A stretch of DNA of 64,000 nt, taken from an uncultured Gemmatimonadales bacterium (lineage in GTDB: Bacteria; Gemmatimonadota; Gemmatimonadetes; Longimicrobiales; Longimicrobiaceae). The stretch is taken from positions 96,001 to 160,000 of the forward strand of contig OY970303.1 in NCBI GenBank assembly GCA_963716255.1, given 5' to 3'. The position numbers were made by a program. Of this stretch, positions 27,301-30,221 are shown piece after piece (the first letter of the stretch is position 1; every line of letters begins with the position of its first letter).

Positions 27301-30221
27301 CGCCTGATGTGGGAGGGGATGGACGAGCCGCTCCCCGAGGGCGGCTGGGAGGTGCTCGCGCCCTCCGACCTCCCCTGGAAGCCCGGGAACCCCGTCCCCC
27401 GCCCCATGACCCGCGCCGACATGGACGCGGTGCTCTGCGAGTTCGTGCGCGCCACCGAGATGGCCGCCCGGGCCGGGTTCGACATGGTGGAACTGCACTG
27501 CGCCCACGGCTACCTGCTTTCCAGCTTCCTGACCCCGCTCAGCAACCGGCGCACCGACGCGTACGGCGGCTCGCTGGAGAATCGGCTGCGCTACCCGCTG
27601 GAGGTGTTCGCGGCCATGCGCGGCGCCTGGCCCGAGGAGCGGCCCATGTCGGTGCGCATCTCCGCCACCGACTGGGTGGACGAGGGCGGGCTGGACTGCG
27701 ACGAGGCCGTGGAGATCGCGCGCGCGTTCAAGGAAGCGGGCGCGGACCTGGTCCACGTGTCCGCCGGGCAGACCACGCCGGACGCCAGGCCGGTGTACGG
27801 GCGCATGTTCCAGACACCGTTCAGCGACCGCATCCGCAACGAGGCCGGGATCGCGACCGTGGCCGTGGGCAACATCACCGAGGCGGACCAGGTGAACGGG
27901 ATCATCGCCGCGGGCCGGGCGGACCTGTGCGCGCTCGCCCGGCCGCACCTGAGCGACCCGCAGTGGACTTTGCACGCTGCCGCTGAGCTTGGCTATTCGG
28001 AGCAGTGGTGGCCGGTGCAGTACCTGTCGGGCAAGTCGCAGCTGGAGCGTCAGCTTCAGCGGCAGCAGGAGCTGCTGGGGAACGCCACGATCTGAGGTCC
28101 GGCCGTCGATGCGGGTGCGTCGGGGCCGCTCCGGAGCCGGACGATACTGCCGTCCGTCTCCTGCGCGGGTCGCGGAGCCCCGCCAAACAGCCGGCGGGTC
28201 TCCGCTCCGGCGGAGTGAGCCTCACGCAAACAGCCGCGCGAGTCTCCCTCCGCACTTGGGGTGGGAAGAAACTCCGGGGACTGCGAACGGCAACTGCAAC
28301 GGCGGAGCACGATGGCGGCTGAGGGGGCGTACCTGGGCGGGCGGCACGCGGTGGTGACCGGCGGCGGGCGGGGGATCGGGGCCGCCGTCGCGGAGGAGCT
28401 GGCGCGCCTGGGGGCGGCGCTCACCCTCATGGGGCGCGACGGGGCGCGCCTGGAGGCGCGCGCGCGCGAGGTCGCCGCGCGCCACGGCGCGCGCGTGGAG
28501 GCGGTCGCGTGCGACGTGGCGGACGACGTGTCCGTGGCGGCGGCGTTCGCCGCCGCGCGGGAGCGCTCCGGCGAGGTGCACGTGCTGGTCAACAACGCGG
28601 GGCAGTCGGAGGGCGTCGCCTTCGGCGAGACCACGCGCGAGACCTGGGACCGGATGCTCGCGGTGAACCTCACGGGGGTCTTTCTGTGCACGCAGCAGGT
28701 GCTCCCGGGCATGCTGGAGGCGCGCTCCGGCCGCATCGTCAACGTCGCGTCCACCGCGGGGCTGCGCGGGTACTCGCGCACGGCGGCCTACACCGCGGCG
28801 AAGCACGGCGTCGTCGGCCTCACCCGCGCCCTCGCGCTGGAGACCGCCAAGCGCGGCATCACCGTGAACGCCGTCTGCCCCGGCTACACCGAGACGGACA
28901 TGGCGCAGTCCGCCGTGGACACCCTGGTGCGGGCGCGCGGCATCACCGCGGACGAGGCCCGTGCGATGATCGCGCGCCCCATCCCCCGCGGCACGCTGAT
29001 CCTCCCCGAGGAGGTGGCCAACGCGGTGGGGTGGCTGTGCTCGCCGGGGGCGTCGGCCGTGACCGGGCAGGCGATCGTGGTGGCGGGGGGAGAGGTGATG
29101 GCGGGGTGAGGGGCCCCCACCCGGCTCGCTTGAGGCTCGCCACCCTCCCCCAATTCTGGGGGAGGGCTTCCCGCGACTCGGTTTTCCATGAGCGCCGACA
29201 AGCACAAGCCTGTCCGAGGAACCAGCCGGGAAGTGCGGGAAGCCGCCCGGGGATTTCGCAGGACCATGACGGAAGCAGAGCAGGTGCTGTGGGCGGCTCT
29301 CCGTTACCAGAAGGCGCGCGGGCTCAGGTTCAGGCGTCAGCACCCCGTCGGCAGGTTCGTGCTCGACTTCTTCTGCCCCTCGGCGAAGCTGGCAGTAGAG
29401 CTGGATGGTTCCGTCCACGACCAGCAGGTCGAGCGAGACGAGGAGCGGACCCGCGTCCTGGAAACCGCCGGCTACCGTGTCCTCCGTTTCCGGAACGAGG
29501 AAGTGTTCGACGACTTGCCCGCCGTCCTGCGACGCATCACCGCGGCAGCCCGGGAAACGCGATGATCTCGCCTCCCGGCGAGCCCTCCCCCAGAATTGGG
29601 GGAGGGTGGCGGCTCTAAGGCCGCCGGGTGGGGGCCCGCGCACGGCACCCGAAGACAAACCACGATCCGACATGACCACCAAGCTCCTCGCCGCCGACCT
29701 CCGTCCCGTCCACTTCCGCTGGGAGACCGACGGCCCCGTCGCCACGGTCACGCTCTCGCGTCCCGAGCGGAAGAACCCGCTCACCTTCGAGTCGTACGCC
29801 GAGCTGCGCGATACCTTCCGCCAGCTCGCCTTCGCCACCGACGTCAAGGTCGTCGTGCTCACCGGCGCCGGGGAGAACTTCTGCTCCGGCGGCGACGTGC
29901 ACGACATCATCGGGCCGCTGGTGCGCATGAAGGAGGGCGGGCGCATGGACGAGCTGCTCGCCTTCACCCGCATGACCGGCGACCTGGTCAGGGCCATGCG
30001 CGCGTGCCCGCAGCCCATCGTCGCCGCCGTGGACGGGCAGTGCGTGGGCGCCGGGGCCATCCTCGCCATGGCCAGCGACCTGCGGCTGGGCACCGCGCGC
30101 AGCCGCGTCGCCTTCCTGTTCACCCGCGTGGGCCTTTCCGGCGCCGACATGGGCGCCTGCGCCCTCCTCCCCCGCATCGTCGGGCAGGGGCGCGCGAGCG
30201 AGCTGCTGTACACCGGGCGCG

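Follow-up and report, generated by a model that had tools for sequence, protein, structure and literature searches.

Organisation of the DUF559 locus

The window, that is the whole 64-kb stretch of DNA analysed, belongs to a host genome of 8.42 Mb on one contig (73% GC, 96.7% complete), whose named nearest homologues suggest a member of the Longimicrobiaceae, Gemmatimonadota. The gene under study (29188..29565, + strand) is an open reading frame of 125 amino acids predicted to encode a Vsr-like nuclease of the DUF559/YcjD family (PF04480, E = 4e-37, match over residues 16-119). By tblastn it is the sole full-length copy in the genome; a second DUF559 HMM match is weak (E = 3e-4) and lies within a frame of 1664 amino acids. 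The gene stands free between two host genes, both outside the cassette and on the same strand: a short-chain dehydrogenase gene upstream (SDR; 28261..29109, +, likely start 28312) and an enoyl-CoA hydratase gene downstream (ECH; 29672..30505, +).

Two 71-nt segments around the DUF559 gene (29106-29176 and 29573-29643; 76% complementary) form the longest inverted repeat at 28-31 kb, and from the sequence and the inverted-repeat search a core arm was delimited on each side. The left arm (29110..29168, +), for which the TMECO consensus given in PMC4666352 was also used, begins with the first base beyond the stop codon of the SDR gene and contains a C-box (29113-29122), an outer hairpin (29123-29141) and an inner hairpin (29143-29166; CCCTCCCCC-AATTCT-GGGGGAGGG). 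A short leader (29169..29187, +) follows, recognised by comparison with gene-less pairs of arms, where the tail after the same inner hairpin opens in the same way (CTTCC..). The right arm (29581..29637, -) is an inverted copy of the left one, with its inner hairpin at 29583-29606, a perfectly paired outer hairpin at 29608-29625 and a G-box as its outermost part (29626-29637). The two core arms share the same C-box and inner hairpin and differ in the outer hairpin. Arm, gene and arm together make up a cassette of 528 bp, so that the claim of the genome-wide survey's note which we followed up, a lone DUF559 gene between inverted arms of ~58 bp, was borne out. DNA folding, with a tool whose output covers hairpins and not triplexes, gave z-scores of -3.5 for the right arm (+ strand) and -1.9 for the left arm.

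A search of sequencing runs for the 64-kb stretch returned none that contained half of it. Contigs from four metagenomes include the arms and the two host genes and lack the DUF559 gene; the junction is unbridged in them, and they are evidence neither way.

The arms as a variant of the BoxC/PIT/TM repeat

Read along the purine-rich strand, the arm runs from hairpin through linker to G-box, as the BoxC/PIT/TM triplex motif of E. coli does, and both arms have the corresponding CCCTCNCCC-loop-GGGNGAGGG hairpin with a third, G-rich strand after it. In the left arm a hairpin takes the place of the short second loop of BoxC/TM. Judged by their sequence, the arms belong to the BoxC/PIT/triplex-motif repeat as a variant of it, since a hairpin occupies loop 2 and the strict TMECO consensus, with its 3-nt second loop, has only 4 matches in the genome, the cassette arms not being among them. 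A search of Rfam gave no match near the gathering score.

BoxC/TM repeats of E. coli have been known since the 1990s, and a survey by Holder et al. (2015, PMC4666352) described them in 262 proteobacterial genomes and tied them to local instability. As here, the repeats reported there combine a pyrimidine-purine hairpin with a third G-rich strand, are intergenic, occur as inward pairs of two arm types (A and B in E. coli) and vary strongly at shared loci; unlike there, the second loop is here often a hairpin of 15-26 nt. The survey's note had spoken of a repeat class without a known enzyme. The class itself is this known one, but Holder et al. reported that they had found no mobility gene near TMs, and the available part of PMC4666352 mentions neither ycjD nor an endonuclease.

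The genome holds 153 short-loop and 210 hairpin-loop copies of the repeat (reversed controls, 0), and a looser hairpin pattern matched 457 times, against 3 in the reversed control. Genome-wide, 287 arm calls fall into 233 clusters; ~40 of these clusters contain no gene and consist of two arms of different type that face inward across a spacer of 30-45 nt. The earlier figure of about 200 free module copies is close to the number of exact CCCTCCCCC-N3-12-GGGGGAGGG inner hairpins (208), but most of these supposedly free copies belong to mosaics or to inward pairs without a gene and are not single modules. We also considered whether 41 overlapping arm calls were products of single-hairpin deletion, and rejected this; they are mostly two-arm pairs with a short spacer.

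The encoded protein

Purifying selection acts on the protein: 16 chosen pairs have dN/dS values of 0.07-0.27, and none of the 77 matched DUF559 frames in the family contains a stop codon. Residues E31, D60, D73, H77 and D84, each found in 75-77 of the 77 family proteins, are putative catalytic residues, their spacing being that of E73, D102, D115, H119 and D124 in the DUF559 protein VsrA of Caulobacter (Matthey et al. 2026, PMC12907096).

A fold predicted from the single sequence was poor (pLDDT 58), while an alignment of 10 sequences gave pLDDT 81. The best match in the fold search was a Neisseria DUF559 structure (3HRL), followed by the catalytic domain of I-Bth0305I (3R3P; E = 1e-4, TM 0.65/0.81), with Vsr reaching only E = 0.03; on the predicted model, the nearest solved fold apart from the Neisseria DUF559 structure is thus that of a homing endonuclease. 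The protein consists of one hydrolase domain of PD-(D/E)XK type, with neither a DDE, HUH, Tyr or Ser transposase domain nor a separate DNA-binding domain, and its 125 amino acids include no N-terminal NUMOD/HTH region. Nucleases of this fold cleave DNA by hydrolysis and are not known to join strands.

Against the Vsr model TIGR00632 the DUF559 protein scored 16.9 bits (cut-off 97.85). Neither the HUH Y1 RAYT family (PF01797) nor the C5 cytosine methylases (PF00145) had a match in the 96.7% complete genome. The other mobiliser candidates were two GIY-YIG matches, both in long frames.

Association of the gene with its flanking repeats

Only one inward pair of arms spaced 100-1500 bp apart exists in the genome, and it encloses the DUF559 gene; no other gene in the ~230 repeat clusters is framed in this way. 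Among 455 hairpins just two neighbouring gaps measure 250-900 bp; one holds the DUF559 gene and the other an ordinary gene, which from its motif we take to be Nudix-like.

As the survey's note had stated, DUF559 is present in 57 of 71 family genomes with up to 8 matches each, weak hits within long frames included. We examined 77 of the 189 matches, namely the best-scoring ones and those near the SDR-ECH operon, including one identical pair and the locus described here. Inverted flanks with a score of at least 25 were found at 67 of these 77 loci, compared with 315 of 5852 cross-pairings, in agreement with the 26 of 30 loci counted before. The arms differ between loci and match within a locus, again as proposed: the locus's own downstream arm was the best partner at 47 of 71 loci.

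Beyond the family the picture is more varied. Paired flanks were seen at 13 of 20 DUF559 loci in other Gemmatimonadota and were absent from 7. Outside Gemmatimonadota 51 of 80 loci were kept, 46 of them with full flanks, and inverted flanks scored at least 20 at 26 of these 46 loci; none of 43 distal controls reached that score, and among 2070 cross-pairings 33 did. The proposal that inverted flanks extend across phyla held in part, but the direct orientation beat the inverted one at 16 of the 46 loci (hand count), and direct flanks also occur in Neisseria and Sinorhizobium. Counting both orientations, flanks were paired at 32 of the 46 loci and unpaired at 14. Since flanks across phyla are often direct, the 'terminal inverted repeats' are a habit of the family and no general rule. 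A clean inverted DUF559 cassette was found within a paa operon of Deinococcus. Among phage sequences only three weak DUF559 records were found, the sole annotated one without arms.

Two genomes with few repeats bear on the association. In G184 (3.5 Mb) the only 2 pattern hairpins both flank a DUF559 gene, which is not explained if the gene is a passenger captured by abundant repeats, and in G100 the gene is flanked by 2 of 5 such hairpins. Gene and arms form a unit, beyond chance.

The gene also co-occurs with the repeat. Over 70 family genomes, one unpublished genome being left out, a strong DUF559 match was present in 48 of 55 genomes with at least 10 hairpins and in 2 of 15 below that number; 7 of the 55 repeat-rich genomes lack one. 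In the phylum sample DUF559 was present in 8 of 10 genomes with at least 18 hairpins, a cut-off picked after the table was seen, compared with 18 of 211 below it (two unpublished genomes included), and these 18 thus carry the gene with few pattern hairpins. Such counts overstate independence, because the compared genomes are kin.

Turnover of the cassette at host-gene junctions

Of 68 family DUF559 loci, 30 map to syntenic sites of the present genome (G000), where they mark 11 other junctions, all without a cassette; insertion at different junctions, another point of the survey's note, was thereby upheld. One of the 11 junctions has an intact hairpin, one an arm remnant and most have neither, which is not explained by pure homing into existing arms.

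At the SDR-ECH junction itself, a DUF559 cassette is also found in seven genomes of the same genus and at least one other. Five of the DUF559 copies there form one clade (support 100/96), and the G000 copy falls outside it. For the ECH gene, G000 and G013 are sisters (100/100) with 97% nucleotide identity and a pN of 0.011, and the flanks of the cassette are 95-97% identical; the two DUF559 genes, by comparison, share 66% over only 221 nt, with a pN of 0.276, and that of G013 groups with the one of G012 (100/94; pN 0.109). We read this as a probable exchange of the cassette interior between sister genomes. The AU topology tests for replacement of DUF559 at the junction were non-significant: they rejected neither a single origin of the 9 copies at the junction (p = 0.059), nor a placement of the G000 copy with the five-genome clade (p = 0.33), nor a sister relationship of the G000 and G013 genes (p = 0.078). 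In the G012-G013 pair, whose descent is apparently vertical, DUF559 evolves 4 times faster than ECH at silent sites, and this fast evolution, together with the single origin that the AU test did not reject, counts against the exchange reading. A further point against it is that in other genomes the same junction takes many unrelated inserts; its repeated filling may mean that the site is tolerant.

Several DUF559 protein clades, in a 77-row tree built by quick search only, are old inherited loci. Co-evolution of arms and protein was rejected as independent evidence on this account, arm type following clade largely because the clades are old inherited loci. In E. coli, ycjD has a single position, occupied in 3378 of 5426 genomes; no empty site was found, strains without ycjD having the eef efflux operon there. 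Movement of the cassette is slow, as the old inherited clades and the single position of ycjD indicate.

Change of the free repeats between sister genomes

The survey's note had left target duplications unsought, and we searched for them in the sister genome. Ten of 30 repeat loci of G013 could be compared with G000; the flanks of 15 were too short, 3 were non-syntenic and 2 had no hit. Pieces of repeat were present in G000 at all 10 comparable sites (flanks 90-98% identical), with hairpins swapped, flips and deletions. A further 351 kb of G013 provided 21 more comparisons, covering 12 G000 sites and 9 of 24 G013 sites. In 6 of them the other genome had no arm, and the site held a different repeat or unrelated sequence, or was deleted; one extra module had a copy of the same ~25-nt piece of a different repeat on each side. 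Across the 10 and 21 orthologous sites, in fragmented contigs of relatives at 95-97% identity, there was neither a target duplication nor a clean empty site. Swapped hairpins, flips and deletions at shared sites are what gene conversion predicts, and the change of the free repeats looks more like recombination among copies than cut-and-paste.

Interpretation and alternative explanations

We favour, with a probability that we place a shade above even, the reading that the 528-bp unit is a selfish nick-and-copy cassette whose predicted nuclease acts on its own repeats. The DUF559 protein would nick the folded, extruded BoxC-type hairpin or triplex of the purine-rich strand, and host repair would then copy from another arm by template switching, a process that would yield gene-less pairs and mosaics. 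The whole cassette would be copied or exchanged between sites more rarely than arms are; that only 1 of ~230 repeat clusters holds it is a point against the nick-and-copy model. For the wider proposition, that DUF559/YcjD is the cognate structure-specific Vsr-type nuclease of pan-bacterial BoxC/triplex repeats and spreads both the repeats and its own cassette by recombination, we see an even chance. The link between enzyme and repeat is supported by the match of arms within loci, the many junctions, the co-occurrence, the purifying selection and the lack of an HUH RAYT. Of the survey's suggestion that DUF559 is an IS/RAYT-like enzyme spreading the repeats, this link is the part that stands, whereas an IS-like transposase with terminal inverted repeats is not supported.

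Alternatively, the repeats might spread by other means (host recombination or another enzyme), with DUF559 kept as a domesticated nuclease that resolves hairpins or triplexes stalling replication or transcription. This is unlikely in our judgement, yet it accommodates a good part of the data: the purifying selection, the long occupation of some junctions, the fixed position of ycjD in E. coli and, equally well, the co-occurrence of gene and repeat, and PIT elements have been reported to stop polymerase in vitro (PMC4666352). A housekeeping gene, however, need not lie within its own substrate, nor come with arms where other copies are lacking (G184, G100), and the apparent exchange at one junction between sister genomes would be unexpected.

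Quite unlikely is a true transposase that cuts out the unit bounded by the arms, inserts it and moves the gene-less pairs as MITEs. IS elements with terminal inverted repeats and their MITEs likewise have a gene between inverted ends and shorter gene-less versions, and the matched arms at 67 of 77 family loci, the ~40 inward pairs with spacers of 30-45 nt, the cassettes at many junctions that are armless in this genome and the clean inverted cassette of Deinococcus would fit such an element. What speaks against it is that neither target duplication nor clean empty site was found in the G000/G013 comparisons, that direct flanks score higher at 16 of 46 outside loci and recur in Neisseria and Sinorhizobium, that the end orientation is thus variable, that a lone hydrolytic domain has no known strand-transfer chemistry (no transposase fold, and no DDE, HUH or serine chemistry), and that here and in E. 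coli there is one gene copy per genome.

A solitary enzyme of very-short-patch repair, as proposed for Caulobacter VsrA, that is a mere passenger between abundant repeats is very unlikely: the fold is Vsr-like and VsrA, with its DUF559 domain, has a functional genetic link to a cytosine methylase (PMC12907096), but PF00145 is unmatched in the 96.7% complete genome, genes caught between hairpins are uncommon (one besides DUF559 in the set of 455), the matching of arms at a locus extends across phyla, and the specificity of VsrA is, by that paper's own account, not yet established.

Relation to known systems

The closest parallel in layout to the favoured nick-and-copy cassette is found in REP/BIME/REPIN sequences with TnpA-REP (RAYT) and in TIRtrons (Di Nocera et al. 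2013, PMC3733652). There too, one nuclease gene belongs to each repeat type and is framed by cognate hairpins in variable number and orientation, the repeats form hundreds of gene-less dimers and mosaics, and the gene copies are few and under purifying selection; in contrast, the DUF559 enzyme is PD-(D/E)XK/Vsr-like and not HUH Y1, and the GTAG tag is absent.

In fold, the closest characterised protein is the EDxHD homing endonuclease I-Bth0305I (Taylor et al. 2011, PMC3239194), which has a Vsr-type active site and is grouped with Vsr and DUF559 in PMC3424549, so that the statement of the survey's note that DUF559 is not known as a mobile-element enzyme needs correcting, the Vsr/DUF559 group already containing one. 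I-Bth0305I spreads its own gene by cut-and-repair, as is proposed here for the DUF559 cassette. It differs in having 266 amino acids with an N-terminal NUMOD/HTH region; the present locus has no intron or intein, and a repeat dispersed over the genome, in place of a single conserved gene, is its putative target. In layout the proposed system would resemble a REPtron and in chemistry a homing endonuclease, without belonging to either family.

VsrA of Caulobacter damages DNA in vivo in an scmA mutant (PMC12907096). Unlike Vsr and VsrA, the present protein has no matching C5 methylase in its genome. A search for arms beside vsrA did not find the arm motifs in the text of five supplementary files of that paper. 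In the literature searched, which was mainly open-access and included the available parts of PMC3733652, PMC2229807, PMC1189080 and PMC6116569, we found no link of DUF559/YcjD to BoxC/TM or any other repeat. Added by the present analysis are the lack of a RAYT or methylase match, the co-occurrence counts, the probable exchange at one junction, the target-duplication null and the closer match to a homing-endonuclease fold.

If true, the proposal would assign a function to a large DUF and mean that a nuclease outside the HUH class can drive hairpin repeats, giving a second enzyme-repeat system beside REP/RAYT. It would also connect REP-like repeats with homing endonucleases, the site of homing being a repeat dispersed over the genome, and make the Caulobacter VsrA phenotype worth rereading; a tiny nuclease specific for folded DNA could serve as a tool.

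With ycjD of E. coli K-12, which encodes a protein of 120 amino acids, as a named candidate, the origin of BoxC/TM repeats becomes testable. In 10 of 12 fetched E. coli records, TMECO counts were 9-31 in five chromosomes with ycjD (one of the five copies split by IS1) and 1-16 in five without. This contrast tracks phylogroup, because phylogroups A, B1 and C are reported to carry ycjD instead of the eef operon (PMC12817139). Around ycjD, BoxC copies lie on the downstream side only.

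Operon context and neighboring repeats

The cassette, a DUF559 nuclease gene (29188-29565, + strand) framed by two inverted BoxC-type arms, lies within a host gene cluster (window 25774-34149) resembling an operon for the breakdown of aromatic compounds (anthranilate/benzoate-CoA), whose members encode a flavin monooxygenase-reductase, a short-chain dehydrogenase (SDR), an enoyl-CoA hydratase (ECH), an acyl-CoA dehydrogenase, a CoA ligase and RidA. DUF559 cassettes in three other genomes (G023, G040 and G041) occupy different junctions of this same operon. At three loci from another genus (L043, L044 and L058), the SDR-ECH junction, where the cassette resides in the window, is occupied by inserts unrelated to it; judged by sequence, these resemble a toxin-antitoxin-like pair, a restriction-endonuclease-like gene and other repeats.

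Long multi-hairpin elements, representing further structured intergenic repeat families, are present at most operon junctions. They lie at window 28150-28260, 30530-30650, 33550-33700 and 34945-35001, and mosaics of these repeats with BoxC-type arms occur throughout the genome under study (G000).

DUF559 homologs in other genomes

The DUF559 proteins of L032 (genome G007) and L076 (G023) are identical, and so are their arms, which are of a cyanobacterial-looking type; the genomes belong to two genera, and the match would reflect either recent transfer or bin contamination. In a Neisseria gonorrhoeae record (L268), a homolog of the type of 3HRL, the solved Neisseria DUF559 structure, has a hairpin repeat on both sides, the two copies in direct orientation (score 73), so that a crystal structure of a likely cassette enzyme may already exist.

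Insertions associated with BoxC hairpins

A hairpin module of ~25 nt has 83 copies across G000. Many of them interrupt the loop of the inner BoxC hairpin, 22 when a strict test is applied and more on visual inspection; others are located within a tandemly repeated heptamer. The inner BoxC hairpin looks like a hotspot of insertion or recombination. A 111-bp BoxC pair is also found in frame within an apparent NRPS adenylation-domain gene (C1, ~5801390-5801500), and the sister genome (G013) carries a different repeat, likewise in frame, at the matching NRPS-like site.

Elsewhere in the window (21990-25667), a 996-aa ORF, Cys-rich at its start and with nuclease-like (HNH-type) motifs, adjoins a 209-aa ORF that looks LysM/peptidoglycan-binding-like; this region may represent a bacterial polymorphic toxin locus.
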